Source: a virus (taxonomy: Duplodnaviria > Caudoviricetes). Taken from it: a stretch of DNA of 64,000 bases. Below the pieces are notes generated by a model. It had not been told where the DNA came from. It ran no database searches and worked only from the letters and a program-made list of their open reading frames with translations. This document shows positions 1 to 43,167 of the stretch, one piece after another (position 1 is the first letter of the stretch; each line of letters begins with the position of its first letter). The stretch covers positions 32,001 through 96,000 of the IMG/VR virus record IMGVR_UViG_2687453683_000002, one strand, 5' to 3'. Position numbers and translations under genes: made by a program.

Positions 1-3000
1 GTATCCAGAATAACCTCTTCACGGATTGGTAAAGTGATATCCACAATACCTGTCATTTTGTTCGTAGATGTGACTCCCATGATACTAAGGAGGTCTCTAG
101 CCCCGCCCTTCGCTACGTCGATTTCGGATTCGAGGTCGCTGTGAACACGAATCTTAGCAAGGATTTTAGAAGGGATTTCGCTTTGTGCAGGGTACATGAC
201 TTTGATTTTACTGTTCAGGTCTGTGCGACTTGGGACAATAAAGCTACCCGCTAGGTCATCGTGCCACAAAATGAACATGCTAGAATCAATACCGGACTGT
301 GCTTCTCTACGGACGGAGATTCTACCGTTCAGGTTTCTTACAATCCAAACATTGACCTTACCTGTCAGTTCTTCTTTTTCGGTTCTCTTTACCGTAATCT
401 TAGATTCTATGGACTTTTCAAAGAACTGGCGTACTGTAATACTTCCGTCAATCGTGTCGTATTGGACAACTTCGATGGCAGAGTCAACGTCACTTGCCAT
501 ACGCACCCTAACGGTAAACTCACCGTCAATATCGACGTTCCCGTAGGCAGGGACTTCAATCCTGCTAAACAGGTATCCAGAGTTTACTTGAATGCTGGAC
601 GGCAACATACTTGCCCCTACAATGTCCATCTCACCCAAGATGTCTTTTCTGAACGGTACGATGATTTTGGATTTAAGTTCTTTAATAACGGTACGTCTGA
701 CTGTGATACTTCCTGTGATATCGCTGTGGATAATCGGGAAGATTAACCCTTTCAAGTCAGGTCTGGATACTGCCGCCTGTCCTGTTAGTTCACTTCTGTC
801 AGCCCGTCTTGCTGTAACTGTGCCATCCAAATCACTGCGGAATCTGACGTAAACTGAAGAGTTAAGGTCAGGTCTGGATACCGTCAGGCTAGATTCCTTT
901 GTGCTGTCGTTCGTGTGCCTTACAGAGATGCTACCCTTGTAGTCGATGTAAGGGTTGACCTCAATCGTGCCGAGTAACTGGTACTGGTTGGCAACGATGC
1001 TTGAAACAATGTCAGTGTCTTCGCCGCCCCTTGCAATCATCACAGAGTCTAGGTCACTACGATTCAGGACTTCAATCGTACCAAGTTTATTACGCTCACT
1101 TACAATGAACTGCGCTGTCAGGTCTTCGTCCACTGTACGCACTACCTTGATTGTACCAACTTTGTCGATGTACGGTCTTACGTAGACGGTGGCAGGACGC
1201 TCTTTAACGGTTACAATTGCCCACCCGTAAAGGTTGTCGTCACCCCATACTCGAACACCTAGCTTCGACGGAGTGTCTTTTCTGTTGGCTACGTAAAGAG
1301 TCTGTTTCAGGTTTGGTCTGGATACCGTAATACTACAGTTCTCAAGGTCGTTCAGTTCTGCTTCTCGTACCGCCACTTTGGAAGTAAGGTCGCTCCAAGT
1401 CCCTCCTCTGACGATACCTTTACCTTGCAGGTTTGGTCTGGAAATCATCAAACGGGAAGGAAGGTTCTCGAACCGATTGCCTGAAGGTGTGACCGTTATT
1501 TTCGAGGACATGTCGTTCTTATCGGATTTCTTGAACACATTAATTTTGGACGACCAATCCTTTGTACGTGGGTACATTACCAAGATGCTTGTATCAATTC
1601 CAGAACGTCCAGTGCTTCGGATTACTTCATCAAAGTAAGTGTATTCGATGGACGGTGCTAAAGATACACCTGCGTCCATTGAGAAGAACTGAGACGATTC
1701 GTCAGCTTCGTTTACCGCCCGAACGTAGAAGTCTACGATGTTTTTACCTTCAAGCTTAGCTTTCAGGATGTATTCGGTGATATCGAAGGTGATGAAACCT
1801 TTCTCAACGTCTGCTGTAAAGTCTCCTTGGCTTACTACATCGCCCGCATTGGGTTGGTTGTTCCAAGTTACTCCTAACTCTGCCCAATCACCTGTTACGG
1901 CTCTTAGTTCAAGTGGGTACGTTGGAGTACGCCCGATGGAATGCTTAAGCTTCAATGTGACTTTTTCAATCTTGTAGTCATTGGACATGCCCAAGATATT
2001 CGTGATATCAAAACCTACAAGGCTTCGGAATATCTCTGTACGAGCGGCACTGTACCCTGCGACCAACGTCTGTTCTCCGCCATAGTTCAGCTTAGGGTAC
2101 GTTTCACGAATAAATGCGTCTCGTTTCGCAGTTAGTGTGTCTGTAACTCTCGTAGGCTGTTGAATGTCTACGATTGCGGTCATCTTATTGGAAGGAGTTA
2201 CACCCAAGGTCATCGGAAGGTCAGAGACTTGCTTTACGTTCACCTCAGAGGTTACGTCACTATCCCCCGTTCCCCAAATGTCAGTTTGGCCTGTCATCGA
2301 GTTCCGTAAGCGTACACCAATTCTGCCGTCAATAGTGGACTCGCTGATACCCATTGCGAAAATACTGCCGCCAATTTCCTCTGTTCCCTGACCGAAGATA
2401 TCGACCGTGCCTTCCATTGAGTTCAACTCTCGAACGGCAATCTTAGATTTAAGGTAGCTGTCACTCATCCTCTTGATGCTTATTTTCGAGTCGAGGTCAG
2501 CTTCCCTCACACCCCATATAAACGACGTACCGTCCATGGTGTTGTTCTCAGTTACGGAAATCTTAGAAGGTAGATAGGAATGACTGGGCACGGCTAATAT
2601 ACTCTCTAGGTCACCATCCCTTACGCCCCATATAAACGATGTACCGTCCATGGTGTTATTCTCAGTTACGGAAATCTTAGAAGGTAGATAGGAATGACTA
2701 GGTACTGCTAATGTACTCTCCAGGCTAGAGCTTACGACAGGCTGTATAACCCCTGCTATCTCACTGCTACCGCTCTCACTGACTGTAAAAAAGGCACTAA
2801 ATTCATTCCGGTAAGGTACGTTAAGTGAAGACGTAACGTCGGATACCTGCTTGACGTTTATAAAACTTGCTAAGTTACTTACGGGGATTATACCTTCCCA
2901 TGTATCGCCACTCAAACCGCTACTATCCATTACATCAATAGTGATGGAATTAATAAGGGAAGTGTATTTATTCTCAGGTACAGTGTATGAAAAACTGTAA

Positions 3001-3926
3001 GGCGTTGTTTGCAGTTTGCTCCAATCCATTTCTACCACACCATTAACAGAAATCCTGTATTTGGAGTTACCATTAGCGGGGTCTGTTACTAAGCCACTTA
3101 CGTTACCTTCGTTGTCTGTTGTCGATGACACAGCAGGTGGGAGTTTCAGGAATGTAAGAACTGCCTTACCGCTAGCTAAGTTACTTCCTGTTGTTGATGT
3201 ACTGCCAAAAAGCGTAAGGTCAATGTAGTTCCGGCCACCTGCACCGCCACCTCCGCCACCGCCTGATGCGGCGTACCAGTCTCCGGGAGTAGCAGAAGCA
3301 CCGCCACCTCCACCTGCACCACCGCCGCCATCATAATCAGTCGCACCGCTGTTTCCAACCGAACCTGTACCGCCCTTGCCGTTGTAGTAGGATTCAGAAC
3401 CACCGATACCGCCAGAACCGCCACCATGAGGAAATACGCCACTTGCTCCGCCTGAACCTGCTAAACCTCTGTATGATATGCTACCGCCGACTCCGTTTGC
3501 CCCACCAGAGCCGGCATTACCTCCCGAGCCGCCAGTACCACCTGCTGCAGTTCCTCCATTGTGTCCTGCCGATCCTCCGTTACCTCCACGCCCGCCACCG
3601 CCACCTGCGGCAATTATGATGGAACTTCCTCTTTTGACATAAGTGCCGCCTGCTCCGTTAGTACCGCTACTCCCGGAACTAGAAGTACCGCCATTAGATT
3701 TACCCGAGCCGCCACTACCGCCGCTACCACCATTAGATTGACCGCCTACTGTAATAGCTAATACTTCACCTTTGGTGAGGTTTATTTCCCCTTTTACGTA
3801 GCCGCCGCTCCCGCCATTCGTACTACCTGCTCCGCTTAACTCTATTAGATAGCGTCCGCCATTAGGTACTGTCCAAGATGACGTAGAAGTGGACGTAAAA
3901 TTAAATTTATCACCGACGACTGCCAA
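1..3926 (-). CDS. Large tail-fibre/adhesin-like protein (>1300 aa, 3'-partial): glycine-rich N-terminal domain, Ig-like repeat, DNRLRE-like domain, many short S-x-I-x-V repeats
   Basis: Absent from ORF track because it runs off the window. Manual translation from TTG at 3926 (RBS GGATGTG): MAVVGDKFNFTSTSTSSWTVPNGGRYLIELSGAG...GGGGGRGG...; DAFIRETYPKLNYGGEQTLVAG...RSLVGFDI...DWAELGVTWNNQP; frame open to position 3. Confidence 0.85.
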   Translation of the reverse strand, partial: MAVVGDKFNFTSTSTSSWTVPNGGRYLIELSGAGSTNGGSGGYVKGEINLTKGEVLAITVGGQSNGGSGGSGGSGKSNGGTSSSGSSGTNGAGGTYVKRGSSIIIAAGGGGGRGGNGGSAGHNGGTAAGGTGGSGGNAGSGGANGVGGSISYRGLAGSGGASGVFPHGGGSGGIGGSESYYNGKGGTGSVGNSGATDYDGGGGAGGGGGASATPGDWYAASGGGGGGGAGGRNYIDLTLFGSTSTTGSNLASGKAVLTFLKLPPAVSSTTDNEGNVSGLVTDPANGNSKYRISVNGVVEMDWSKLQTTPYSFSYTVPENKYTSLINSITIDVMDSSGLSGDTWEGIIPVSNLASFINVKQVSDVTSSLNVPYRNEFSAFFTVSESGSSEIAGVIQPVVSSSLESTLAVPSHSYLPSKISVTENNTMDGTSFIWGVRDGDLESILAVPSHSYLPSKISVTENNTMDGTSFIWGVREADLDSKISIKRMSDSYLKSKIAVRELNSMEGTVDIFGQGTEEIGGSIFAMGISESTIDGRIGVRLRNSMTGQTDIWGTGDSDVTSEVNVKQVSDLPMTLGVTPSNKMTAIVDIQQPTRVTDTLTAKRDAFIRETYPKLNYGGEQTLVAGYSAARTEIFRSLVGFDITNILGMSNDYKIEKVTLKLKHSIGRTPTYPLELRAVTGDWAELGVTWNNQPNAGDVVSQGDFTADVEKGFITFDITEYILKAKLEGKNIVDFYVRAVNEADESSQFFSMDAGVSLAPSIEYTYFDEVIRSTGRSGIDTSILVMYPRTKDWSSKINVFKKSDKNDMSSKITVTPSGNRFENLPSRLMISRPNLQGKGIVRGGTWSDLTSKVAVREAELNDLENCSITVSRPNLKQTLYVANRKDTPSKLGVRVWGDDNLYGWAIVTVKERPATVYVRPYIDKVGTIKVVRTVDEDLTAQFIVSERNKLGTIEVLNRSDLDSVMIARGGEDTDIVSSIVANQYQLLGTIEVNPYIDYKGSISVRHTNDSTKESSLTVSRPDLNSSVYVRFRSDLDGTVTARRADRSELTGQAAVSRPDLKGLIFPIIHSDITGSITVRRTVIKELKSKIIVPFRKDILGEMDIVGASMLPSSIQVNSGYLFSRIEVPAYGNVDIDGEFTVRVRMASDVDSAIEVVQYDTIDGSITVRQFFEKSIESKITVKRTEKEELTGKVNVWIVRNLNGRISVRREAQSGIDSSMFILWHDDLAGSFIVPSRTDLNSKIKVMYPAQSEIPSKILAKIRVHSDLESEIDVAKGGARDLLSIMGVTSTNKMTGIVDITLPIREEVILD
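2512..2724. repeat. 114-bp (38-codon) in-frame tandem duplication
   Basis: CCCCATATAAACGA at 2512 and 2626; two near-identical copies of LAVPSHSYLPSKISVTENNTMDGTSFIWGVR. Confidence 0.9.
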
Positions 3927-3943
3927 ATTTTATCACATCCGTT

Positions 3944-3982
3944 CCCATTGTATTGAGAAGTTACCTGCCCATTGTATTGAGA
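3944..3982. repeat. 15-bp direct repeat CCCATTGTATTGAGA x2 in leader of the 3926 gene
   Basis: Copies at 3944-3958 and 3968-3982; 11-bp core also at 12011-12021. Confidence 0.8.
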
Positions 3983-3987
3983 CATAG

Positions 3988-4023: not shown

Positions 4024-4032
4024 ATTCCTAGC
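4003..4032 (-). promoter_or_regulatory. Putative phage-type late promoter (GCTAG-N16-CTTATATTG)
   Basis: Matches motif recurring upstream of multiple tail genes. Confidence 0.6.
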
Positions 4033-6346
4033 TTTTTCTTGGGTCAGCTTTGACTAGGATATCGAACATACCGCCCCACATCGCCTGTCGATTAGTCGCT
4101 ATGCGAACATAGAAACTAATCTTTGCATTGTGGTCTAATTGCTCTACGTAGACAAGCTGAGGACGTGGCTCGAAGGGAGCATCTAGCTTACTCACTTCGG
4201 CCTTGGCATTGATTCCATCGAGTTCTCTTTGGTCAACCCACAGCCTGACATTCTCTACAGGGTAGCCTAGAGTGTTCTTTACGAATACCCTCTCTGCCGC
4301 TGTCGTCTGCCCCGCCACCATAGTCCCGAAGTCAAGGTACTTTAGCACATCTCCGAAGTCGTCTGAATAGAACGACTCTGCCGCATCGCAGAACAACAGC
4401 CCTGAATACACACCCATGAAGATCATATCCCTCGAATTCGAGCCGCCCAATTCATCCAACGTTTCAATGCGGACAGTGTTGTTCTTGCCCTTATTTACTT
4501 TCGTTTTCGGGATGACGTACTGGATTGTCAATGGTACAGGATTGTAGCCCGTGTATCCATTCTCAGGGTAAAGCTGTGCTCCGTTCAGGAGGATTCGATA
4601 CTGCACCTTATCTGAGTCGGGATCTGTGACCTGAGCGTTGATAAAGTTACCAAGAACTGTGCCTGTGATTGTAGGTGCAGTGTTTGTCTTGATGATTATC
4701 TGCGTCCACGTGGTTAGTGAGCCTAAGTCGTCCTGCACTTCAATCTTGAGAGTGTTCGCCCCCACGTTGAAGTCTGCGTTGTTGATTACTAGCCCAATGT
4801 CAACAGGTGGAGGGGTTAGTTCTGTGAATCCTGTAATCGGATACTTCTGTATGTTATTCAGTAGCACACGGTACTGTACTCTATCCCCTTCAGGGTCGGA
4901 TACTGTACCGCCAATCATGACGTTATCTTTGTGAATCTGAGCCGCAGATAATTCAGGAGAAGCTACAGGGGCAACATTAGTCTTCGTTGTAGTCCAAGCA
5001 ATGGAGTCTGTAAGCCCTTGTGAGTCCTGCACCTCTAACATTACCATGTTACTTCCGAGATTAAAGTACGTATGCGATAAATCCTTAGTAAGAATGAAGT
5101 CCGTCAACTGCGAAGAAGTCCATCCAGATGAAGGGAATCTCTGTGTACCGTTAACCAAAACCCGATACGACACCAGGTCATTGGCTATATGTCCGATGGT
5201 AGTAACAAGCTGACAGTCTTCCTTATGAAATGACGGTGTGATACTTGAGTCTGAGAAAGTGAATGAAACCTCACCGCCGCCCATAAGCCTACGAACGTCA
5301 CTAGCTACATTCTGCCAAGCCACTACACCTGTGCTACTGTTGTTGTTCGTAGCAGTTCCCAACATACCGTAATAGTTGTACCCTACGCCCCTTACTTTAC
5401 CATCGTTGTCCAGTACAAGAGTATAGTAGTAACCCATAGCTACTTGCCTAACGTTGGTTGTGGCAAGCCTTGGAGTGTAGTTTATACTTCCAGATACATA
5501 CCCCATCCCTAACTGCGCATAGTCATCGTTTCCGAATGTGTACAGCTTTGAATCGTTTGTTATCACGCCTGAGAAGTAGCCGCCGCAGACGACAGAGCGG
5601 CAGTTATCCATAATCTTGTGCGGAACTCCATAGAAGTTGTTTGTACCATTTCCTAGACTTCTACCTGTCTGCCCGTGGTAGTTATACCCCGTACCCCACA
5701 CAGAACCGTCAGTTTTCAGGAATAGCGAGTGGTATATGCCGCCATCTGCCTGTCGAACGTCATCCATTACAAATGTGAACGAAAGCTTATTGCTTGAGTT
5801 ATTAATCCCCAAACCACCGTACCCATTGTACCCTGTTGCGTATAGCTTATTTTGTTGGTTTATGATAAACGAGTGGGTGTATCCTGCCCCTACCCTCCGA
5901 ATACCCGTTGCGACCTTCTGAGGGGTGTATGTGTCTGAAGTACCACCATTGCCTAACTCCCCGTGAGCGTTGTACCCGAATGTGTGTACATCACCGTTGT
6001 TCTTTAGGGCAACGGTGTGCAGGTAGCCACAAGCGACTTCTTTAACATCTGACATGACCTTTACAGGCGTATAATTAGAGTTATTGTTCCTCCAACCTCT
6101 GGCATCCCCTAACTGCCCATAGTAACCGTATCCGAACGTATACAAGTCGCCGTTCATTAGAAGTACTGCTGTATGGTAGTACCCTTCAGCGACCATCTTC
6201 ACGTTGGACAGTGAAGTTAATCTTGTCTGCGTAGGGTAGACGGAAGAACTACTGAATCCTAGCTGACCGTGGCTGTTATACCCGAAGGTATAAACATCAC
6301 CGTTGTTCTTGATATACGATGAATGGAAAGCCGACTGTGTACTCAT
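4028..6346 (-). CDS. Putative receptor-binding protein: 7-bladed RCC1/BLIP-II propeller + Ig-like repeats + conserved C-terminal domain
   Basis: Seven G(Y/N)xxxG(Q/E)LG-type RCC1 repeats; repeats of DPxGDxVxYRVLxNG; C-terminus shared with the two upstream genes. Confidence 0.85.
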   Translation of the reverse strand: MSTQSAFHSSYIKNNGDVYTFGYNSHGQLGFSSSSVYPTQTRLTSLSNVKMVAEGYYHTAVLLMNGDLYTFGYGYYGQLGDARGWRNNNSNYTPVKVMSDVKEVACGYLHTVALKNNGDVHTFGYNAHGELGNGGTSDTYTPQKVATGIRRVGAGYTHSFIINQQNKLYATGYNGYGGLGINNSSNKLSFTFVMDDVRQADGGIYHSLFLKTDGSVWGTGYNYHGQTGRSLGNGTNNFYGVPHKIMDNCRSVVCGGYFSGVITNDSKLYTFGNDDYAQLGMGYVSGSINYTPRLATTNVRQVAMGYYYTLVLDNDGKVRGVGYNYYGMLGTATNNNSSTGVVAWQNVASDVRRLMGGGEVSFTFSDSSITPSFHKEDCQLVTTIGHIANDLVSYRVLVNGTQRFPSSGWTSSQLTDFILTKDLSHTYFNLGSNMVMLEVQDSQGLTDSIAWTTTKTNVAPVASPELSAAQIHKDNVMIGGTVSDPEGDRVQYRVLLNNIQKYPITGFTELTPPPVDIGLVINNADFNVGANTLKIEVQDDLGSLTTWTQIIIKTNTAPTITGTVLGNFINAQVTDPDSDKVQYRILLNGAQLYPENGYTGYNPVPLTIQYVIPKTKVNKGKNNTVRIETLDELGGSNSRDMIFMGVYSGLLFCDAAESFYSDDFGDVLKYLDFGTMVAGQTTAAERVFVKNTLGYPVENVRLWVDQRELDGINAKAEVSKLDAPFEPRPQLVYVEQLDHNAKISFYVRIATNRQAMWGGMFDILVKADPRKS

Positions 6347-6370
6347 TATTTAACCTCCCATGACTTCCTA

Positions 6371-9289: not shown

Positions 9290-9306
9290 TATATTGACCT
9301 CTCTTC

Positions 9307-21678: not shown

Positions 21679-21766
21679 GATAAATCACCTCTCGTTTGGA
21701 ATTACCCTGCTGGTTATCCTGACTAAATATACTTATTTAATAGGAATTAATGCCAGGGCTATATTG

Positions 21767-23245: not shown

Positions 23246-23293
23246 TTAAATAGCACCCCTTCACTTATTAGCTTTATATAGCAAGTCCTGCTG

Positions 23294-25954: not shown

Positions 25955-25969
25955 TTCATCACCTCCTTT

Positions 25970-26356: not shown

Positions 26357-26359
26357 TCA

Positions 26360-26776: not shown

Positions 26777-26799
26777 AGCATACACCTCACCTTCCATAG

Positions 26800-26829
26800 C
26801 ATTATAAGAAAAAGCAGGGAACAATTAGC
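26800..26829 (-). promoter_or_regulatory. Putative late promoter (GCTAA-N16-CTTATAATG)
   Basis: Motif match. Confidence 0.65.
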
Positions 26830-31408: not shown

Positions 31409-31411
31409 TTC

Positions 31412-32032
31412 TTAGTACCCCCTCAGCAACTTGTCTACGTGTCGGTACGTCCGCATAAGAAACGTAATGGATTCTGCTCTTGTAGCCGCTTCGTCCGGAC
31501 GGAAGTAAACCACAGACTCCCCGTCTGCTTCCCAGTTCGTGGCGATAAGTCCAAGCTGCTGCATATTGTCGATATACTTGTTTGCCCAATGATTTTCGAT
31601 ATCAATGAACTCTGTCATGTACTTGTACTCAAAATCTTGCTTGCGGACGAGAGACATGCCGATGGTTACGATGTACTTCGTTTCCATCTCAGCGGTTTTA
31701 ATATCGGGTTCTCCAGTTACGATGCCGATGTAAACTGTACCTTTCTCGTCGTAATACTTATGTTGAGAGCCGATGAACTGAAGCCAGTCGGCATATTCCT
31801 TCTTAGAATAAAACAGCATGGTTAGGGTAGCGTTATAATGAGACGTTCCGTTTTGCACAAGCCCGGCCGAAGAGGCCAAGGTCTGGTTGACATGGGTCTT
31901 CAGGTAAGGCGTTGGCGGTTTGTACTCCGTAATCAGCTTTGCCTTGACCTGATTAAACTGGACTCCGTTGTCGTAAAACAGTTTCTTCTTATACACCGAA
32001 TCCTCTGACAAGAGGTTATTTTGTTGTGTCAT
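31412..32032 (-). CDS. Distal-tail (Dit-like) protein with C-terminal SLH domain
   Basis: Immediately after TMP; FIDIENHWANKYI...FRPDEAATRAESITFLMR; start moved to MTQQNN (RBS AGGAGG). Confidence 0.75.
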   Translation of the reverse strand: MTQQNNLLSEDSVYKKKLFYDNGVQFNQVKAKLITEYKPPTPYLKTHVNQTLASSAGLVQNGTSHYNATLTMLFYSKKEYADWLQFIGSQHKYYDEKGTVYIGIVTGEPDIKTAEMETKYIVTIGMSLVRKQDFEYKYMTEFIDIENHWANKYIDNMQQLGLIATNWEADGESVVYFRPDEAATRAESITFLMRTYRHVDKLLRGY

Positions 32033-32053
32033 GACCTTACCTCCTATAAAATA

Positions 32054-32094
32054 ACTCCCCATCTCATTATAAGACGGGGAGTGGTTTCACTAAC
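32054..32094 (-). promoter_or_regulatory. Terminator hairpin whose loop holds the -10 of a putative late promoter (GTTAG-N16-CTTATAATG)
   Basis: ACTCCCCGTCT-TATAATG-AGATGGGGAGT on minus strand; motif at 32065-32094. Confidence 0.65.
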
Positions 32095-35000: not shown

Positions 35001-37342
35001 TTCATAATTTCGTGCATCGTAGCCGCACCTTTGGAAGATTGATACGTGCCAAACAAAGCATCATTGGTATCGCGAACGGTAGGGCTGTCTGCACCGGACA
35101 ACTTCTGAGCAATGGCCTTAAACAGTTCTTCCTCTGGAACAAGAATCTTTGCTCCTGTGTCATCAACTTTCGCTAGACCAAGTTCCTGCAATTTTTTCAT
35201 AGCCTCAGGAGATTGAAGTCTGTTGGCTACTTCTGCACCGTCGTCGCCGTAGTATGGATCAACCTGTGATTTATCCATTTTGTTCAGTGCATTAGGAGAC
35301 CGTAACCTGCTCAGAATGGAGTTGTAGAAGTTACTGACATTCGCCCCTTCAAGTGATTTTGCTTGGAGAGTCGTACCCGCCATAACGATTGCCGTTTCAG
35401 GGTCAACTTTGGAACTTGAACTTTTCAGTGCATCAATAATTTGCTCAATACTTGTTTTAGTCACGTCAGATACAACCGCCAAAGGTTGTGCGATTCTATC
35501 CTCCAGGTCAGCCACCCCAAGTCCAAACTGAGCCTTCGTTGAGGCAAGACCATTGGCAATATTGCCAGGGCTACTTCCAGGGGCTAGTGCATTCAACTGT
35601 GCAGTTACGCGGACAAACTCCTTCATCTCTACAGGGTCATCAAGCAAACCAGAAGCCATGCCCCCTACTTGATAAAGCTGTTTGTAATCCGTGCCATAAA
35701 ACATAGACTGCTGTCTGATAAAGTTTTGCAGATCGCTGACCGTACTCTCCACGCCAGCCATGTTCGTCTTTTCAAGAGAGTTGCCGTCTTTGTCTTGGTT
35801 ATATTCGTCCTTCTGCTTCAAGTTCTGCATCATTTTAAGCTTTTCAGGCTGAATATTCTTAAACGCCTCAACCGCTTTAGACATCGCCATCATTAGAGCA
35901 TTATCGAAGGCTCCCGAAATTCTTTGACGCATGATGTTGATGATTGCCCCTTGTACAGCTTCGGCGTTAACCGCTCCCGATCCACTATCCTTTTCACTGT
36001 TACTGCTTCCTTTGGATGCAGTTCCTCCACCGTCGCTGTGACTGTCAGAAGAAGACGAACCAGAACGAGGAGTAGAAAGGCCAAGTCCTCCTGCATTCCG
36101 AATCTGAGTATCACTGTTAAGTCCACCTGGTCCGGATTGAACCTTATTAATCTCTTGGATGATCGACTGCACCTGAACGTTTACCTGCTCACGGATTTTG
36201 TTAATTAACGCTTTGTTGAGGCGGTTAATCTGATTCACGAGGTGATGCTTCAGCTTAGTTTCAGGGGTGATTTGCACATCATTTATTGCCGTTATTAATT
36301 GGTCAATCTCTTCCTGAACATTGTTGCTCAATTTCTTGTCAAGAGTCTTTGCCACTCGTTCAAGTTGAGCCTTCAATCCAGCGCCACGAATAGAGCCTAA
36401 ATCGACCGTGCCGAGCGCTTCCAGCTTGTCCACCGTAGTGTCAAGTTCCTGAGCAAGAATCTTCTTGACCTTCTTGCTCAGGTCGCCTAACGGAATCTGC
36501 ATCTTGCCCGCCATTGCAGTGTTAATTCCTGCAACGGTTTTGTTGACGTATTCATTCAGGCTTTGTTCAAGTTCGTTAGGGATTCTCTTTACCTTGTCCG
36601 CAACTTCCATTCCGCTCATGTCAGGAACTTCAACATCTATTGCCTTCAACAATTTTTCCTTAGCTTCCTTGATTACCTTGTTCAAGTCTGCCTTGGAAAT
36701 TTTCATGTCGCTGGCATCGGCTACGTCAAGGTTCTGAAGCATACTCACAATCTTTTGTTTGATTTTATTGACGAAAGCGATGACCGTTTCCTTGCCAATC
36801 GTAATCTGTAAACGGTCAAGAGTTTCCGATTTCATCAGATTGGATTTTTGCTTCTGGATAGCACTGACAAGGTTTCGAATTTGTAGATTGATGACCTTGG
36901 CTACTTCTTTATTAATCTCGTTAAATCCATCTTTACTGATAGGAAGCTGTTGCCCGCCGGCGTAGTTAGGGTCGATCTCAATGTGCATGTTACGAACGTA
37001 CGTCCGCAACTCTTCATTAATTTCATTTTCAACTTTGCCCAAGATACCTTGAAAAGTCTCAGGTTTAACCGTGAGCCCAGCAGAACCTAACTGCTCAAGA
37101 ACAATCCCGTTCCCTGTGATGAAATTGTTGAGTTCATTTGTCAACGACTGACGGAGATTGCTTCCAGCCCCACGTGATACCTGCGATTGCAAACCGGACA
37201 GAGACGAACGCATTGCGTCAATCCGCTGCTCCAATCTACCAAAACGAGAATCGAGAGTTTCCATCTCCTGCCCATATCGAGCCATATGATCTATGGATTT
37301 CTGCAACTCTAAAATCACGTCAGTTTGGATTTTGTTGTTCAT
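32090..37342 (-). CDS. Tail tape measure protein (1750 aa)
   Basis: Long helical protein after the chaperone pair, with hydrophobic segment and C-terminal GDVTVNITLPN motif. Confidence 0.9.
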   Translation of the reverse strand: MNNKIQTDVILELQKSIDHMARYGQEMETLDSRFGRLEQRIDAMRSSLSGLQSQVSRGAGSNLRQSLTNELNNFITGNGIVLEQLGSAGLTVKPETFQGILGKVENEINEELRTYVRNMHIEIDPNYAGGQQLPISKDGFNEINKEVAKVINLQIRNLVSAIQKQKSNLMKSETLDRLQITIGKETVIAFVNKIKQKIVSMLQNLDVADASDMKISKADLNKVIKEAKEKLLKAIDVEVPDMSGMEVADKVKRIPNELEQSLNEYVNKTVAGINTAMAGKMQIPLGDLSKKVKKILAQELDTTVDKLEALGTVDLGSIRGAGLKAQLERVAKTLDKKLSNNVQEEIDQLITAINDVQITPETKLKHHLVNQINRLNKALINKIREQVNVQVQSIIQEINKVQSGPGGLNSDTQIRNAGGLGLSTPRSGSSSSDSHSDGGGTASKGSSNSEKDSGSGAVNAEAVQGAIINIMRQRISGAFDNALMMAMSKAVEAFKNIQPEKLKMMQNLKQKDEYNQDKDGNSLEKTNMAGVESTVSDLQNFIRQQSMFYGTDYKQLYQVGGMASGLLDDPVEMKEFVRVTAQLNALAPGSSPGNIANGLASTKAQFGLGVADLEDRIAQPLAVVSDVTKTSIEQIIDALKSSSSKVDPETAIVMAGTTLQAKSLEGANVSNFYNSILSRLRSPNALNKMDKSQVDPYYGDDGAEVANRLQSPEAMKKLQELGLAKVDDTGAKILVPEEELFKAIAQKLSGADSPTVRDTNDALFGTYQSSKGAATMHEIMNTFVKVMEVSGNFDKSKYENMVKSSVDNPLVNTKRAGQSITIAFDALVQEMTPTINKVSYALMNMAENVTKNAQLFVKLGDVLTNVLIGMMLLKGVKWGAGKIGANFERESARTSFLENVSGMNVDNSIKNMTRKEVGEMQKDPLLGGYLRDLNGLTEKQRKHYENYLDSNKVEVKDLPTLFSTMDEAKNWNPGKELTDDEKFDRTKQYNSRLSTRTELASVLTPSLLTTLNSSTANQGVFNTHRASDSNYSKLSDRMSQMSQGDFQGFEDHLVDRQRNGLPPIDDIQKLSTAMDDYEKTQREAAASARQASPAFGDLSNAVRGMNSGMSSTASLKNGFKQFLKDIPDLSKGALVSVKNLAGGFAKMAMEIAGAIGLAQAAKGLTESYLSTDDERLLAQADDRDNDLKGMANTFNALAEGGWAKNRNNLMGLFYSAKNGISSFFGGTPSDLGVFEAQGGPSNPFKTKGYKPEELGIMGEIMNYYNFSGTGEEFSKWLKQREASGGQTVEEAVAEFNAKSGRAAETEKMRQKAINKQYEATKLKEAEDKRLQENAEKEYDEKYKEGAAEFSSIDSGSVLSRVSDRINEIKDTSQIDTLRALMSGMKTDSDEYIALRKNQTESMRQVLNEELDIIDKYIANAKAVMDSADPESQEYADAKTAYDNLTSTRDKVASEGEVDILQQEWNTKQETYQGQVRKVNNSLSRIDLIAQAKELAAAYNMDTQSQEYLDTMKKITLNKLSQMKNELANLQAIQAIGDLSEDQATQVLQLQNTIANEQALIKEYNLASIGIGRAKIQDNSSDRENELLELKLRTGNPDDSSPILRNKRIANAKEEVSEINQVIADLRAKLPAAGADETTKINAEIRDLQKQSLQAQLGILDEMKSTAGTFNMPNGVSAMSRYEYLTRGNTHNTTTIGTGDVTVNITLPNITNGMTNRQLQQVGQSIGQGLSVGRVGSLRSQQAMNPSNYRS

Positions 37343-37406: not shown

Positions 37407-37751
37407 TTATAATAGCTGTGCAAGGTAATTCATATCTTCCGCATCGGCTACTTTATAACCATTCACGTATTTACCGTCAGTTGTTACTTCCTCTTCACTG
37501 GTTGAATCACCAGCAGGAACGCTTCCGCCGAACAGGCCGCCAAGCGACATGGTAGAAACCTTGATCGTAAACTGAATGTGTTCGTTGCATTGTTCCAAGT
37601 AGTAACCTAACTGAGGTAAGGTTAACTGCCACACATCATGCTTTTTCAAGTGGCAGTAGTGGGCAAGTTTGAAGAAGATGTTAGCCCAATCGACAGGCGG
37701 CTGACTGTCATAGTCTTCTTCCTCTTCCAGAGTGGTTACATGGACTTTTTT
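37407..37751 (-). CDS. Tail assembly chaperone GT extension (-1 frame)
   Basis: Overlaps chaperone G in -1 frame; VWQLTLPQL motif typical of gpT-like segments. Confidence 0.8.
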   Translation of the reverse strand, partial: KKVHVTTLEEEEDYDSQPPVDWANIFFKLAHYCHLKKHDVWQLTLPQLGYYLEQCNEHIQFTIKVSTMSLGGLFGGSVPAGDSTSEEEVTTDGKYVNGYKVADAEDMNYLAQLL

Positions 37752-38194
37752 AGCCCATTGAGACCAATCATGCAATCGATAATCTGTTTAGCCGTCTCCA
37801 AATCAACGTACTCTCCAAGATGCTCGACCGTCATGTGTTTGTAATATGGCTTAAATGCCATAAGGAGCACTTCAAGCAATTCTTCAAATCTATCTTCCTC
37901 ATCTTCAGGGATAAGGTTAGCGATGATTACACCGGAATCAATCGTATTAAGTCTCTTCATCAATCTTCGAGCATCAAGCAACCCTAGTGGTGGGATGTAA
38001 TAGGTCTTACCGTCACGTAAGCGAACCTGTTCATCTGTCTCGAAGAATACTTTCTCACGAATGTCAGCTTCCTCTTGGGTCAGTGGCTTCTTCTCTTCTT
38101 CAGCTGTTACCTGTGGAGTCTGCTCTTCTACTTGACTGGCCACTTCTTCAGCGATGCCACCAGCTTTTGGAATAACTAAATCTCGTTCACTCAT
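37736..38194 (-). CDS. Tail assembly chaperone G
   Basis: Between tube and TMP; start moved to MSERDL (RBS AAGGGGG). Confidence 0.85.
   Translation of the reverse strand: MSERDLVIPKAGGIAEEVASQVEEQTPQVTAEEEKKPLTQEEADIREKVFFETDEQVRLRDGKTYYIPPLGLLDARRLMKRLNTIDSGVIIANLIPEDEEDRFEELLEVLLMAFKPYYKHMTVEHLGEYVDLETAKQIIDCMIGLNGLKKSM
37745..37751 (-). other. Programmed -1 frameshift slippery heptamer A AAA AAG
   Basis: CTA AAA AAG TCC ATG TAA in 0 frame; -1 frame reads KKVHVTTLEEE. Confidence 0.85.
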
Positions 38195-38283
38195 TTTAAT
38201 AGCCCCCTTTATAATTCTCCCCCAAGAAAAGTGAATCGAATTGACCACAGAGCGGGGGAAGTCCCTGCAATCAACTCACAGAA

Positions 38284-38348: not shown

Positions 38349-38353
38349 AGTGA

Positions 38354-39412
38354 TTAGCAATCTTCCGCAGAAACAGAACCAACTTCGTAGCGCTTGATAG
38401 AACCAAGCTTACCGTCCGGACGTTCAGGGTCGATTACAGTTAGCGTTACGCTATGCGTGGACGCTTGTTGACGTTGTGCGTCAAGCGTGAAGTTGGACTT
38501 CACACGGCATTGGAACAATTCGGTTTGATAACCTTGGATTGTACCGTCCTTCTGCTCGAACTGACCATCGTGAACAACGTGTACTGTCAACGGCATGTCC
38601 TTGTTTGTGATATCGAGGATATCAACAACTTCGTTCCGCTTGTAGTTGACGTAAATGTTTACGTCCTTGAGGGCCGAGTTGAACTTCAGAATGCCGCCAC
38701 TTACTACGTACTGGTCTTCAGTAGGCGTAGAGCTAGTCGTTTTCTTCAGCAATTTGTTACCTTGCAGAGTACGAACAGAAATCTGAGGGTCAACGTTCAA
38801 GGATGCTCCGTACACAAGATCAACAGTAAAGTCTGAGCCGTTCTGTTTAACCGTGTGCTTTTCTTCCAGCACCCACACGAAGCCGTCAGGGTCTGGTGTA
38901 ATCCCAGCCAGTGCCGCAGCATAAACGATAACAACCGTTTTACCTGCCAGCGCCATATCGAATACGACATCCTGACCCGTTACCGTAACGTCTGCACTCA
39001 GGTCAGCGCCGCCCACAGCACCCTCGAAAGACTTAGGTTTTGGAGAAGCGAGAGCGACTTGGGTAAGTTTCGCTTGATACGGAGAAGCGGAAGGGACTAC
39101 AAAGGTCTCAGTGACCATGCTGTAGGCCGAACCAGAAATACCTTCACGGAGTTTCGAGCCAGTAGCCAAACGTACAAGGTTAAGGTCGAACTTAGCGGAT
39201 TCCGCTGTGATATCAATTGTCTTCTTACGAAGCAACGTATCCAGTGCTACGCTAGAGTCGCCGCCCTCAATGTCCTGCATGTCCAGCTGAATATCCAGAC
39301 GCATGTTGTTCAGCGTACCGATTGTAACGAGGTCGTCACAGTTCGGGATTTTCGCCATGAACTTACCAGCGCCCTTAATCAACATTTTTTTGTTCTTAGT
39401 AACCTTACTCAT
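38354..39412 (-). CDS. Major tail (tube) protein with Ig-like insertions
   Basis: Position; tube-like N-terminus (KGAGKF...DIEGGDS...ITAESAKFD) and C-terminus (FTLDAQRQQASTHSVTL); followed by strong terminator. Confidence 0.8.
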   Translation of the reverse strand: MSKVTKNKKMLIKGAGKFMAKIPNCDDLVTIGTLNNMRLDIQLDMQDIEGGDSSVALDTLLRKKTIDITAESAKFDLNLVRLATGSKLREGISGSAYSMVTETFVVPSASPYQAKLTQVALASPKPKSFEGAVGGADLSADVTVTGQDVVFDMALAGKTVVIVYAAALAGITPDPDGFVWVLEEKHTVKQNGSDFTVDLVYGASLNVDPQISVRTLQGNKLLKKTTSSTPTEDQYVVSGGILKFNSALKDVNIYVNYKRNEVVDILDITNKDMPLTVHVVHDGQFEQKDGTIQGYQTELFQCRVKSNFTLDAQRQQASTHSVTLTVIDPERPDGKLGSIKRYEVGSVSAEDC

Positions 39413-39874
39413 TCAGAAAACCTCCTTATATTCATCTATCCCAATGGTGAAGCATATTTGGGTGAAATACTTGTAGGTGTTCTCTAGATCGATGTCATCT
39501 TCAGCACTAGTGACATACTCACCTTTGAACACACTTCCTTTCGGCATCCAGAAGTAATGATCGTCGAAAATCTGGCAAATACGGTCAGCGATGTTCACTG
39601 CCAGTTCCACGTCATCCTGTGTATAGATATCGAAGTCAACGATGAACCTATACTCAAGGTGATTCTCGCCTCTTGCGCCGGGATTTTTGTAGAACGTCAT
39701 CAAGGGCAAGTTGTGCTGAACGAAGTTCTGCGGCTTCTTTCTCTTCTGAATCTTCGTTCCCAATTCCTCCAGAGATGCGTCTGCCGCAAGCCCTAGCATG
39801 GCAAAAATCTCAGGATCTTGACGAAGCTTGGAATGAATACAGGCGTAAACATCAGAGACGCTGATCTTTCCCAC
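39413..39874 (-). CDS. Tail terminator/completion protein
   Basis: Directly upstream of tube gene; LPLMTFY...VDFDIYT motif; GTG start at 39874. Confidence 0.65.
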   Translation of the reverse strand: MGKISVSDVYACIHSKLRQDPEIFAMLGLAADASLEELGTKIQKRKKPQNFVQHNLPLMTFYKNPGARGENHLEYRFIVDFDIYTQDDVELAVNIADRICQIFDDHYFWMPKGSVFKGEYVTSAEDDIDLENTYKYFTQICFTIGIDEYKEVF

Positions 39875-39878
39875 ATCA

Positions 39879-40130
39879 TCACATCCTCTTATGAATGCTT
39901 CGTATACCAATATAAGTTGAAATGGGTATATTTCTAACCGCCCTGCGTACTGCGTTGTCCACCATTGAAATGAATTCATTAAGGCTATATTCGAACAGTG
40001 AGACGGTGGAATCTCTACCTAAATGGTTCTTTTTCATTCTATTAGGAGGGCTCCTGACGTTGAACTCATGGATGTTGTCGCCAAGTCTACCCACTGCCCA
40101 TAGGGTTTTTAGAAGCTAAGTGGCTGGTGT
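39879..40130 (-). pseudogene. 3' remnant of neck/head-tail joining gene
   Basis: No credible start; stop abuts the next gene; frameshifted upstream piece (PYGQWVDL). Confidence 0.4.
39908..39938 (-). promoter_or_regulatory. Putative late promoter (GTTAG-N17-CTTATATTG) for terminator/tube genes
   Basis: Motif match, one extra spacer base. Confidence 0.55.
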
Positions 40131-40168: not shown

Positions 40169-40507
40169 TTACTTGATTTCGATAATGGATGCCACAGGCT
40201 GGCTACCCGAAGTCATAAATAGCTTCCGAGCCTTGAACGCCTTTTGCTCCTTGAAAAGCAAACGTTGATCTTCATTGCCCACTCGGAGATTCGGTTTGTC
40301 ACTGACATAGATATCTCCGAAGCCCAAGTTCTCGACAATCAAGGTGGTATCTTCTTCTTGAGCGTTATAAATGAACTGACCCATGATAGAAAGTTGTTGG
40401 GTAAACTCTGCTACTACGTCGCCCTTCAATCCATCTAGGCTAACCGTTTCAGTCTCTTTCTCAGGGGCTTTAGAAGTCCTCTTCCGTTTGTTTGTTGTTC
40501 CTGCCAT
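40169..40507 (-). CDS. Hypothetical phage protein (112 aa)
   Basis: Intact ORF with RBS GAGGGGAG. Confidence 0.7.
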   Translation of the reverse strand: MAGTTNKRKRTSKAPEKETETVSLDGLKGDVVAEFTQQLSIMGQFIYNAQEEDTTLIVENLGFGDIYVSDKPNLRVGNEDQRLLFKEQKAFKARKLFMTSGSQPVASIIEIK

Positions 40508-40656
40508 TTTTAAAACGCTCCCCTCATTGTGATATGTAATAATTCAAACCAAGTAAAAAGTCGTCCACTAATTTCTGACCAGACTTGTGTTCAGACGGGT
40601 AAACATGTTCTTTCAGCATCCCAAACTCCTTACACCTTTCTATCTTTGTCACAAGT

Positions 40657-40746
40657 CATTATAGGGTGTAGACCTTTCGTTAACTTAAAGTAGGTCGTAT
40701 TTACCTGCTGTAAGTACATTATAGGTAGGTGGAGTCTCGCTTTAAC
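40657..40746 (-). promoter_or_regulatory. Two tandem putative late promoters (CCTATAATG at 40657-40665 and 40717-40725)
   Basis: GTTAA-N16-CCTATAATG at 40717-40746; GTTAA-N14-CCTATAATG at 40657-40684. Confidence 0.55.
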
Positions 40747-40839
40747 CGAAAGCTTTTAAAAACAAATAGCGTGACCCGCAGGGTAACGCCAAGCTTTGCC
40801 ATAGTTTTACTCAGTGAGTATTTTCACTACCCCTTGCCT

Positions 40840-41013
40840 ATGTTTTATTATTCTATATATCTTTCTTTTATATCTCTTAATCTTTTATATCTCTTTATAC
40901 GGTGTAAACTTTACAATACAGAACTCACAACAAATGCACTTTTTACACTTCATAGGGGTCTGTATGGTAAAACATACACTTCAGACCTGAATGGTAAACT
41001 GTACACTTCAGAC
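40840..41013. repeat. Iteron-like repeats with adjacent AT-rich strand-asymmetric tract (replication origin remnant)
   Basis: ATGGTAAAACATACACTTCAGAC (40964-40986) and ATGGTAAACTGTACACTTCAGAC (40991-41013); TACACTTCA also at 40944; T/C-rich tract 40840-40900. Confidence 0.5.
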
Positions 41014-41019
41014 ATAACA

Positions 41020-41326: not shown

Positions 41327-41478
41327 TTCAGGGTCTTTTGCAAAGTCCATGTTCAAGTCTTCCCATTTGATGTTCGGGTTGATTTCCCTCGATGCCCGAT
41401 GACATTATCTCTGGAAACTCAGGGTCTTGTCCCTGCTTGTACTTGTACATCTCTTCCGAATCGGCAAATTCAGCTATA
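41327..41478 (-). pseudogene. Terminase large subunit-like fragment
   Basis: YKQGQDPEFPEIMS then frameshift AS(R)EINPNIKWEDLNMDFAKDPE, resembling the TerL xTWEVNP...F..DPE motif. Confidence 0.45.
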
Positions 41479-41628
41479 TCAATCCATCCCTTCTAAGTGC
41501 ATATCAAAACGTTCAATCATAAACTCGAAAACGGCAGACAGGTTTCCCTCAAAATAGTGGTCAGCTACCTCCTGCAAATACTTTTTATTCTCTGGAGTTG
41601 TTCTCAAGTAGATCCTCTCTGTTTTCAT
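41479..41628 (-). CDS. 49-aa ribbon-helix-helix-like DNA-binding protein (not in ORF track)
   Basis: MKTERIYLRTTPENKKYLQEVADHYFEGNLSAVFEFMIERFDMHLEGMD; ATG overlaps upstream TGA. Confidence 0.6.
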   Translation of the reverse strand: MKTERIYLRTTPENKKYLQEVADHYFEGNLSAVFEFMIERFDMHLEGMD

Positions 41629-41888
41629 CACGATAACCCTCTCTCCTTCATACACGGTCTACAGCCAGTGAGTGTTTTTGGCAGAACTTGCATCCGCTGG
41701 TTAGAATCATCTAACTCTTCAGGCAAGACCAAGTAGCCATATCGGTTCATGACTTTTCCTGTAATTTTACCGATACAATGGAGACAAAGCAGGGGTTCTC
41801 CTTGAAGCCCTTCGGCAACAAAGTTCTCCCTTGCTTTATCTGTGACGTACCTGAACTCGCACTTAATGCACTTGACTAGCTTATCCAC
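41628..41888 (-). CDS. Cys-rich zinc-finger-like phage protein (86 aa)
   Basis: CIKC...CLHC...CRPC. Confidence 0.6.
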   Translation of the reverse strand: MDKLVKCIKCEFRYVTDKARENFVAEGLQGEPLLCLHCIGKITGKVMNRYGYLVLPEELDDSNQRMQVLPKTLTGCRPCMKERGLS

Positions 41889-42403
41889 TTTACGTCAATC
41901 CCTTTGTTCGACTTCTTACCGGAAAGAGTCAAGTGTGCTTGAGATGGGAACGATTCTTCAAAGCCATCACGCTCCGCGTACTCCGCAGTGTTAACAATCG
42001 TATTTCGGCAAACCAGCCAAGGCTTCTCTTCTCGAACCAACAATCCATTGTACGTGTCAATAGCGGATCTCTTGATTGGCTTACTAAATTCCTTGTGCCA
42101 ATGCCTACAATATGTAACGTTTAAAGGTTTTACAGGCTCAAGCTTGTCCATTACAAAATAAATTGGTTCTCTTGGATACATATATTGTATATATATTCCA
42201 CCTTTACCGAGTTTTATGACTCCTTCAATATAGTCACCGTTCAGTAGATTACGAATGTTATGTTCATTAGTCTTGGCGAAGTCAATCGCTCTATCAAGCA
42301 ACCTAATATCAGCGGCTTCAGGCCCGATATGCGAATCATTAAGTAATAGTACATTCAAGTTCTTCACCAATGGGGCGTTAAAACCTGATTTCAGGTATTT
42401 CAT
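41876..42403 (-). pseudogene. Calcineurin-like metallophosphoesterase, internally deleted
   Basis: DSHIG and NGDYIEG motifs present; GNH motif missing; GHxH degenerated to RHWH. Confidence 0.6.
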
Positions 42404-42405
42404 TG

Positions 42406-42627
42406 TTATCCTCCTAGTCCAAGTAATTTTCTCCGTATCTCCGCTTTCTTCTTATCTTTAGCACAAGGTCGGCACTCGTAAATTCCCATGTACCTATCCA
42501 CTAACTCTTGATAAGGAACATTCAAGGTATCCGATAGACAGTGGATACATTTACTGCCTTCCGTCTCATAGATAGTGGCTAGAGCCTTTGCATTCTGCGT
42601 AATAAACCTTCCGCAACCGCATTTCAA
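42406..42627 (-). CDS. Cys-rich zinc-finger-like phage protein (about 73 aa)
   Basis: CGCG...CIHC...CRPC; TTG start after GAGGTG. Confidence 0.6.
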   Translation of the reverse strand: MKCGCGRFITQNAKALATIYETEGSKCIHCLSDTLNVPYQELVDRYMGIYECRPCAKDKKKAEIRRKLLGLGG

Positions 42628-42645
42628 TATGACCACCTCATTTAC

Positions 42646-42675
42646 CAATATAGGTAGGTTTGTTCGTACTTAAAC
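42646..42675 (-). promoter_or_regulatory. Putative late promoter (GTTTA-N16-CCTATATTG)
   Basis: Motif match at the head of the minus-strand gene run. Confidence 0.55.
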
Positions 42676-43010: not shown

Positions 43011-43013
43011 TAT

Positions 43014-43091
43014 CGGGATGTGGAAAAGTTTGGAGTTCTCGCTTGCCTTGGAAGCAAGAGAACGCAGGTTCAAGTCCTGCCATTCCGACCA
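43014..43091 (+). tRNA. tRNA-Pro(TGG), phage-type
   Basis: Acceptor CGGGATG/CATTCCG, anticodon arm CTTGC-CTTGGAA-GCAAG, T arm GCAGG-TTCAAGT-CCTGC, discriminator A, encoded CCA; D stem has a mismatch. Confidence 0.85.
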
Positions 43092-43092
43092 T

Positions 43093-43167
43093 CGGGAAGT
43101 AGCTGAAATAGATTAGCGGCGGTGTGAAATACCGTAGATATTGGTGCGTTACCAACCTTTTCGACCG
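43093..43167 (+). tRNA. tRNA-Phe(GAA)-like, degenerate
   Basis: Acceptor CGGGAAG/CTTTTCG, anticodon arm GCGGT-GTGAAAT-ACCGT, atypical T loop TGCGTTA, ends CCG rather than CCA. Confidence 0.6.

Follow-up and report, generated by a model that had tools for sequence, protein, structure and literature searches.

The window analysed here (the whole stretch of 64,000 nucleotides, bases 32001-96000 of a single 120,234-base IMG/VR provirus record) is best explained as holding most of a ~70-kb remnant of a siphophage related to Brevibacillus phage Jenst, an element that has been headless since long ago and is still a working genetic unit. The evolutionary claim, that a headless Jenst-like element has been kept by selection, is strongly supported by comparison with related genomes, in which the tail genes are unbroken and conserved and the head and packaging genes are reduced to fragments. 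Judged by synonymous divergence (dS) and by its insertion sites, the headless element is one that has moved between species, evidently spreading horizontally as a discrete unit. That it produces particles of the F-type tailocin kind is given somewhat better than even chances on the basis of its gene content. An earlier reading of the window's letters (the original prediction) had proposed a headless, sheath-less tail locus of this type, descended from a large siphophage and retained by selection as a weapon or surface appendage.

Organization of the tail genes

The nearest phage by PHROGs and tblastn was Jenst (126 kb), and every Jenst open reading frame (ORF) was run by tblastn against the 120-kb contig. 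Families were assigned from PHROGs, domains from Pfam and transfer RNA (tRNA) genes from ARAGORN, and ratios of nonsynonymous to synonymous substitution (dN/dS) were calculated pairwise by the Nei-Gojobori method. The minus strand carries every long ORF from window position 42648 to 1, and the G+C content is 44-50 % across the tail block and 33-40 % to the right of 43 kb. The stretch that starts with the gp160-like gene and ends with the last tail gene comprises 23 ORFs with 13,933 codons and has a coding density of 97.9 %; none contains an internal stop, and each aligns end to end with its Jenst counterpart, Jenst gp160 to gp139 being colinear and full length at contig positions 71964-29246. 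The prediction of more than 20 unbroken tail genes is therefore upheld, as is that of a 1750-aa tape measure protein (TMP), located at 32090-37342. The tail features are as follows.

39413..39979, minus strand: gp160-like protein in the tail-end or terminator position (phrog_32412; 76 % to Jenst gp160; dN/dS 0.18-0.23)
38354..39412, minus strand: major tail (tube) protein, 352 aa (83 % to Jenst gp159, a 'virion structural protein')
37407..38248, minus strand: tail assembly chaperone pair in overlapping ORFs, with a -1 slippery site A_AAA_AAG at 37745-37751 (dN/dS 0.02-0.25)
32090..37342, minus strand: TMP, 1750 aa (phrog_32382, 1964 bits; 51 % to the Jenst TMP over its full length)
30365..32062, minus strand: gp155-like (216 aa) and gp154-like (347 aa) proteins in the distal-tail position (82 % and 58 % to Jenst; dN/dS 0.03-0.10)
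26862..30359, minus strand: 1165-aa tail-tip protein with Peptidase_M23 and 3D domains (Pfam), a predicted cell-wall hydrolase (67 % to Jenst gp153)
19858..26824, minus strand: baseplate core of gp152, gp151, gp150 (886 aa, PKD), gp149 and gp148 (606 aa, DUF2460) homologues (Pfam; dN/dS 0.04-0.32)
11379..19831, minus strand: gp147-like (1289 aa), gp146, gp145, gp144-like, gp143 and gp142 homologues, colinear with Jenst
4028..11346, minus strand: three paralogous receptor-binding-type proteins of 679, 972 and 772 aa (Pfam: LamG; RCC1 propeller)
1..3926, minus strand: distal protein, first 1308 of 2227 aa, with two CBM96 modules (45 % to Jenst gp139)
43014..43091, plus strand: tRNA-Pro(UGG), found by ARAGORN

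The relatives of the tube gene are called 'tail protein' in their source annotations, and the gp160-like gene is missing from some relatives. The A_AAA_AAG site lies nine bases ahead of the stop, and all 17 relatives examined, Jenst among them, have it; this programmed -1 site is the sole frame change in the tail block. The gp155-like protein has a weak SLH match (E 2.5e-4). Toward the distal end the genes vary more: gp147 ranges from 287 to 2320 aa among the relatives, and the last ORF (2227 aa) extends 2.76 kb past the left edge of the window. The three receptor-binding-type paralogs differ at their N-termini and have their C-terminal ~400 aa in common (32-35 % pairwise identity over 380-450 aa), with Laminin_G_3 and RCC1 found in two of the three, and these cassettes are swapped among near relatives whose core is 96-98 % identical. 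The array of several adhesins, which figured in the prediction of a candidate new tailocin class, is no novelty of the headless form; it is inherited from Jenst-like phages, which have gp141, gp140 and gp139. An ancestor in the form of a large tRNA-carrying siphophage agrees with Jenst, which has 6 tRNAs. The tRNA-Pro of the window, also found in locus L004, is what is left at the position that the tRNA array occupies in Jenst, and only 29 nt of it align with the Jenst tRNA-Pro, at 90 %. The gp144 homologue (12680-13936) has 418 aa compared with 119 in Jenst, through an in-frame insert of ~300 aa that is present in nine relatives (364-418 aa).

Loss of the head and packaging genes

The interval between gp174 and gp160 in Jenst measures 10.5 kb and contains gp173, gp172, thymidine kinase, the terminase large subunit (TerL), gp169, portal, gp167, gp166, capsid and gp164 to gp161, whereas the window has 2.2 kb between its gp174-like gene and the tube gene, consisting of gp173, bits of TerL and portal, a shortened gp164 and the C-terminus of gp161. 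The features of this region and of the head of the late block are as follows.

42406..42648, minus strand: gp176-like small Cys-rich protein that heads the late block (phrog_32445, E 6e-43; 78 % to Jenst gp176)
41876..42403, minus strand: gp175-like metallophosphoesterase with an in-frame loss of ~80 aa, matching only Jenst aa 1-94 and 175-253
41628..41888, minus strand: gp174-like small protein with four Cys (phrog_29009)
41327..41450, minus strand: TerL remnant of ~43 aa in two frames (tblastn to Jenst TerL aa 246-288)
40717..40916, minus strand: regulatory stretch within the head remnant, with the palindrome TGTAAAGTTTACA at 40902-40916 and a late-promoter motif at 40717-40746
40506..40595, minus strand: portal remnant of ~30 aa (tblastx to Jenst 14327-14416, 57 %)
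40169..40507, minus strand: gp164-like protein, 5'-shortened to 112 aa from 131 (phrog_36726; dN/dS 0.13-0.40)

No match to Phage_sheath_1 or to the HK97-type Phage_capsid family of Pfam was obtained in the 120-kb record, in a search in which control genomes matched, and the portal is limited to its remnant, in agreement with the predicted absence of sheath and capsid genes. Nor does the locus hold capsid, portal or terminase genes beyond fragments, as would be expected of heads that package DNA in PBSX-type elements or gene transfer agents. The description of this stretch as shredded holds for head and packaging genes, of which fragments are present; replication genes, which had also been placed there, do not belong to it and are intact to the left of the window. 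The gp175-like metallophosphoesterase is probably dead, with dN/dS values of 0.63 and 1.54, and all 13 headless loci have the gp174-like gene, as does the reduced element of genome G081 (dN/dS 0.05-0.23 in the more distant pairs).

The junctions of the head remnants are common to the window and genomes G001, G002 and G003, so the head was lost before these four split (dS ~0.2) and selection on the tail acted after that loss. L004 carries the same TerL fragment as the window. Distant loci hold other remnants (thymidine kinase with gp167 and capsid fragments in L007; gp163 and gp162 in L014), which fits ongoing erosion of a head block that is not under selection, and gp164 is complete in L005, L008, L009 and L014.

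Recurrence of the headless layout

Species-representative genomes scanned with the tube protein gave 15 loci, of which 13 have the headless layout, lacking TerL, portal, gp167, gp166 and capsid except for small fragments. These 13 belong to 11 Paenibacillus species, 'Bacillus sp. FJAT-27264' and one Brevibacillus laterosporus. All retain the tube gene, chaperones, TMP, gp155 and gp154, and their tube proteins are 74-98 % identical to that of the window. Of the other two loci, L018 (B. tequilensis) is an intact prophage and L017 is rearranged and was left out of further analysis. When the L018 capsid protein was searched in whole genomes, no copy was found in 13 of 13 headless hosts, the control genome matching itself; one host has a broken capsid remnant of 38 aa, at the element locus. 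Genus-level counts were made in the 93 genomes of the GTDB genus containing G001. A full-length tube gene occurs in 14 of these (69-99 % identity), a Jenst-type capsid gene in none, and portal matches in 12, all 34-45 % identical and with only two fragments in tube-positive genomes, so that no cognate portal was found in the relatives' genomes. Intact cognate heads elsewhere in the genome, which had been named as evidence against the prediction, were thus not found in the whole genomes of relatives. In 21 of the 93 genomes (G016-G103) there is a second, distant family of ORFs of 278-292 aa that resemble the C-terminal half of the tube protein at 39-43 % identity.

Relatives that are intact do occur, namely Jenst itself, L018 and, in P. 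peoriae, a circular plasmid of 137 kb that carries TerL, portal (65 %) and capsid (66 %) genes. The TerL homologue of the latter (pPlas1; L059 14749-16663) is annotated as two ORFs ~200 nt apart. Gene order and homology shared over the tail, lysis and early modules place the element in the Jenst-like lineage by descent. In a tree built from tube, chaperone, gp155 and gp154, twelve Paenibacillus loci form one clade that is entirely headless (support 100/100); the best tree places Jenst beside L013, nested among the headless loci, with L015 and G081 outside. Forcing the headless loci to be monophyletic was 13.9 log-likelihood units worse (approximately unbiased test, p-AU 0.055).

Selection on the retained genes

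Gene integrity was tabulated in composites of nine relatives (G006, whose locus is split over contigs, was left out, and G009, G010 and G012, for which only the 21-kb loci were used, stand outside this table). All genes from tube to gp148, among them the baseplate core genes gp152 to gp148, are present as single ORFs of full length in nine of nine composites at 40-99 % identity. The distal genes differ in length and fall to 24-60 % identity, also between relatives with a core identity of 96-98 %. The dN/dS values were 0.06-0.11 for tube, 0.05-0.08 for the M23 tip, 0.06 for gp150, 0.05-0.07 for gp148, 0.24-0.30 for TMP and 0.1-0.3 for the distal genes. Outside the tail they were 0.07-0.11 for holin, 0.10-0.13 for lysin, 0.05-0.15 for two sigma-like genes and 0.06 for a gp075-like gene. 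The replisome genes (helicase loader, helicase, primase and polymerase) gave 0.08-0.2 when the window was compared with G002, and as much as 0.37 against the near-identical G001. Fragments of ligase, Gam and gp118 gave 0.8-1.6. Neutral evolution of the remaining genes was therefore not seen: tail, lysis, sigma and replisome genes lie at 0.03-0.3 (replisome to 0.37 in the near-identical pair) and fragments alone lie near 1. Neutral evolution over the observed divergence would predict 83-165 nonsense changes in the tail codons; none was observed. The prediction that selection retains the tail is accordingly supported by values of 0.03-0.3 after a shared head loss and by the 13 headless loci, and the neutral decay of tail genes that would have spoken against it was not encountered.

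Location and movement between species

The element stands directly after glnA in G001 and G088, and by inference also in the strain of the window.

43304..43351, minus strand: last 48 nt of glnA (alignment to G001, where the whole glnA abuts the element)

A locus downstream of glnA across Paenibacillus had been anticipated; the position is not conserved, and the window holds only these last 48 nt of the gene. Two candidates were rejected: glnA as a conserved anchor, the element lying elsewhere in other species, and the 468-aa ORF at 43565-44971 as glnA, which is a Schlafen/AlbA_2 protein. The G002 and G003 copies have a circularly permuted order (early-tail-lysis) and lie more than 100 kb from glnA at mutually unrelated sites, and the insertion sites in further species differ again, except in the sister pair L008/L009. 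Eleven housekeeping genes beside glnA have a dS of 0.47 to >2 between G001 and G002 and of 0.30-0.81 between G002 and G003, compared with 0.07-0.33 (window and G002) and 0.03-0.31 (G002 and G003) for the element core. A stable locus inherited with the host is not borne out, since the site varies and the element dS is far under that of the host. Only 243 bp in G001, and 222 bp in G088, separate the sequences that flank the 66-kb copy in G002, and these flanks are only 69-76 % identical there. The low element dS and the empty sites indicate that G002 gained a discrete 66-kb unit after the head had been lost. The insertion junction in G002 was not placeable to the base because the intergenic DNA is too diverged.

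No intact integrase was found in 10 of 10 composites (fragments in four, nothing in six), no recombinase was recognised in PHROGs among 10 further early ORFs (one of them searched as a 32-aa piece only), and no small terminase was recognised in the element. End repeats of at least 12 nt and att-like repeats were likewise not found, and the Jenst terminal repeat had no match, in a comparison where weak similarity in non-coding DNA could escape.

Lysis, regulation and replication

Lysis genes had been expected to the left of the window and were located 3-5 kb left of it, where contig 27079-28841 carries a holin-like gene, gp136, an Amidase_2 endolysin and gp134 (dN/dS 0.07-0.39). In 10 of 13 hosts a lysin homologous to this one is encoded at a distance of 33-50 kb downstream from the tube gene. 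The early block, at contig 26870-4908, has the opposite orientation to Jenst. It contains two sigma-factor genes, an intact replication module (contig 17-27 kb; DnaD-like protein, helicase loader, helicase, primase and an 863-aa DNA polymerase), and fragmented ligase, RecB, Gam and integrase genes. Insertion sequence (IS) insertions are also present. The claim of a tail-only locus consequently fails, because in the clade of the window the replisome and both sigma-factor genes are kept under purifying selection. The polymerase is a single ORF (contig 17204-19795); the Jenst annotation splits it into three pieces, two of which are separated by an endonuclease gene.

A late-promoter motif, GYTAR-N16-CYTATAWTG, scanned with up to one mismatch, gave eight matches compared with 0.39 expected. 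Seven copies, on the minus strand, lie directly before gp176 (42646-42675), gp164, the chaperone gene, gp155, gp152, gp143 and gp139, and exact copies are found at equivalent places in relatives and in Jenst at 13518, 15449, 46732 and 53286. The copy within the head remnant corresponds in position to the Jenst promoter at 13518, which lies between TerL and portal, and this copy and the palindrome 160 nt upstream are conserved in seven loci; the deletions appear to have spared a late promoter that would now face the tail genes. The single definite RNA run placed no reads on the stretch, and in three possible RNA runs, with contigs over it, the depth was even across coding and non-coding DNA, which is uninformative on expression.

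Over its N-terminal ~125 aa the gp075-like protein (372 aa, contig 13886-15004) is a paralog of the product of the structural gene at window 25970-26356; it has a HEIGH zincin-like motif at residue 282 and no Pfam family match, and at least its N-part is retained even in the 34-kb minimal elements described below. Transposase-like ORFs are situated at contig 1999-3297 and 7779-9006, the second within the early block, where the Gam fragment and a gp115-like gene flank it, and a candidate TraG/VirD4-like fragment was noted at contig 3691-4179 by motif reading.

Degrees of reduction

Of the 13 headless hosts, six have an intact phage polymerase, one has a split one and six have none. A gene set free of replication genes is seen in reduced relatives (6 of 13 hosts and G081), and the window element keeps its replisome. 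The G081 element measures 34 kb, lies between host genes and belongs to a group at 70 % identity; P. terrae, P. kribbensis and Paenibacillus sp. IHB B 3084 are the names given to hits at this identity level. It begins with gp174, the tube gene, the chaperones and a TMP of 286 aa, continues with baseplate and distal genes, and ends with a holin-like gene, a sigma-24-like gene, the N-terminal part of gp075, gp080 and a second sigma gene. Such minimal forms retain regulators, tail genes and a holin-like gene only. A short TMP (252-301-aa open frames) adjoins the tube gene in five of five further genomes of this group. At the Jenst ratio of 0.165 nm per residue, such forms would be expected to make tails of ~45 nm, and the minimal 34-kb forms look like a fixed weapon.

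Interpretation and alternatives

Three features of F-type tailocins are present, namely a full non-contractile tail set without a sheath, no intact head genes and an own lysis cassette, and two are absent, a replication-free cluster and a stable host-inherited locus. A non-contractile tailocin fits because the tail is hydrolase-tipped and carries swappable carbohydrate-binding proteins, and because promoters, sigma factors and lysis genes are the element's own. On induction, the sigma factors would read the phage-type late promoters and these would drive the 43-kb tail operon. The tube protein would polymerise round the TMP, aided by the frameshifted chaperones, into a flexible tail of ~290 nm by the Jenst ratio, and a large baseplate would bear the peptidoglycan hydrolase tip and several carbohydrate-binding receptor proteins. 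Holin and amidase could lyse the producer and release headless tails, which may bind related cells and harm their envelope, as F-type tailocins do, and the retained replisome may boost gene dosage upon induction.

Several observations weigh against this interpretation. The case for a tailocin is made from gene content and selection; the AlphaFold2 model of the tube protein, from a 16-row alignment, was poor (mean predicted local distance difference test score, pLDDT, 56), and a profile search of PDB sequences with this protein gave no match. No repressor or SOS control was identified, and no Jenst-type lysin was found in G081. The absence of head genes elsewhere was assessed in whole genomes of relatives, including the 99 %-identical G088. 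The replication genes are under purifying selection (dN/dS 0.08-0.2), and the lack of a fixed locus together with interspecies transfer of the headless form suits a selfish element equally well. Conserved replisome, permutation and cross-species transfer fit an element that is still selfish, and movement of the headless form between species weakens the simple picture of a 'domesticated weapon'.

A tail-bearing, helper-dependent mobile element, which would replicate, make tails and lyse the cell by its own genes and take capsids and terminase from an infecting Jenst-like phage, is considered doubtful. It would account for the low interspecies dS beside that of the housekeeping genes, the clean insertion in G002, the circularly permuted copies and the constrained replisome, and intact Jenst-like relatives, among them the P. 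peoriae plasmid with TerL, portal and capsid, do exist in the genus; gp164 and gp160, beside the tube gene, are also often retained. Set against these are the failure to find an intact integrase, end or att-like repeats, a match to the Jenst terminal repeat or a small terminase, the loss of the connector genes gp163 to gp161 in most loci, the six of 13 hosts, and the G081 element, that have a tail and no phage polymerase, and the absence of a possible helper capsid gene from all 93 genomes. A broader form of this idea, held to be similarly doubtful, is a 'tail-forming' half-phage mobile element with replication, a sigma cascade, tails and lysis, which would cross species via helper capsids or a capsid-free route and grade into fixed 34-kb tail weapons with a six-fold shorter TMP.

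Tails might also be made for a purpose other than killing kin, such as adhesion to surfaces, fungi or plant polysaccharides, acting as a phage decoy or receptor block, or delivery of the zincin-like gp075. The CBM96, LamG, RCC1, PKD and weak SLH domains would suit such a purpose, as would the gp075-like protein, with its HEIGH motif, virion-type N-domain and low dN/dS, kept even in minimal forms; the same domains are, however, found in the infectious phage Jenst, and the M23/3D hydrolase tip and the lysis cassette point to bacterial walls, so this purpose is regarded as unlikely. An ordinary decaying prophage, with the tail intact because decay has consisted of a few recent deletions, is very improbable. 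The IS insertions, the fragmented ligase, RecB, Gam and integrase genes and the broken gp175 would be expected of it, and CheckV scored the record as 92 % complete as a provirus; but the head loss is shared at dS ~0.2 and the tail nevertheless shows low dN/dS and no stops, the headless state recurs down to 74 % tube identity, and the twelve-member clade is entirely headless. The selection tests already contradict this explanation.

Comparison with known systems

Jenst and SecTim467 (Jenstvirus, 126-130 kb) resemble the element in gene-for-gene colinear tail, lysis and early genes, in the late-promoter motif, in the sigma-factor genes and in TMP length. They differ from it in having terminase, portal, gp167, gp166, capsid, thymidine kinase, rep/par genes and an intact integrase; in the element the early block is inverted, and it is chromosomal whereas Jenst is a virion genome. 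By transmission electron microscopy Jenst is a siphovirus with a non-contractile tail of 286 +/- 22 nm (PMC4909266, Table 2), in keeping with the predicted siphophage ancestor.

F-pyocins, the monocin of Listeria and rhizoviticin are, like the putative product of the window, headless sheath-less siphophage-type tails with a lysis cassette and variable receptor-binding genes, their gene sets being maintained in bacterial chromosomes. F-type tailocin loci measure ~10-20 kb and occupy fixed positions, and no described tailocin locus is known to carry replication genes. Compared by description, the window differs in having 43 kb of tail genes in an element (34-70 kb) that moves between species, with its own sigma factors and, in this clade, a replisome. 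Capsid-forming phage satellites (cf-PICI) keep heads, borrow tails and carry integrases; the window element keeps tails and has no intact integrase, and both retain one half of the virion genes. If the helper-dependent or half-phage reading were true, the element would be the mirror image of these satellites. The efagins of Enterococcus faecalis are chromosomally encoded phage-related particles that, by the account in bioRxiv 10.64898/2025.12.13.693970, recognise cell-wall carbohydrates. As described there they are species-restricted and occur in all E. faecalis, in contrast to the patchy (14 of 93 genomes) and horizontally spread element of the window, compared by description. The tail-like bacteriocin of Brevibacillus laterosporus is characterised in PMC9406221 as inducible, PBSX-like and contractile (XkdK sheath), with capsid genes. 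This PBSX-like element from the same bacterial family is unrelated to the Jenst-like element, which B. laterosporus also carries (L015; H5).

No description of a Paenibacillus or Jenst-like tailocin was found in the literature, a search that lay outside the supplementary tables of prophage regions of PMC12643537, in which such loci may be listed; that genome paper does list Jenst-like prophages of Paenibacillus scored 'intact' by PHASTEST. Prophage callers thus score such loci 'intact' or '92 % complete' though they are incapable of virions. Gram-positive non-contractile tailocins are few, the monocin and efagins being those found in the literature, and the element would add a family that is widespread in Paenibacillus, a genus used in crop protection that includes bee-associated species. 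It would also offer a 43-kb tail apparatus with swappable carbohydrate-binding receptor proteins and a natural TMP series from 286 to 1750 aa, and its interspecies spread without a head makes it testable whether half a phage can be transmissible.

Adjacent element

Contigs of runs X2, X4 and X5 (99 % identity) continue into glnA at 43356, which indicates that a second element has inserted at the glnA end in the strain of the window. This second element, of low G+C (window 43351-64000; contig 75351-120234), begins at the 3' end of glnA. Its genes encode a Schlafen/AlbA_2 protein, a weakly AbiU2-like HEPN protein, an ATP-dependent DNA ligase, a SRAP peptidase and a DUF3908 protein, and to the right of the window an SSB-like gene and other early-type phage genes follow. 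By Pfam scan, window 59223-63998 holds an RHS-repeat protein (2076 aa in the contig, 91760-97990), which has a distinct C-terminal end, and the 174-aa ORF after it stands in the usual immunity position. In G005 a broken portal-like fragment (G005:C1:203541-203708) lies 1.4 kb downstream of glnA, the Jenst-like element of that genome being on another contig, and the 3' end of glnA may be a repeated landing site for prophages.

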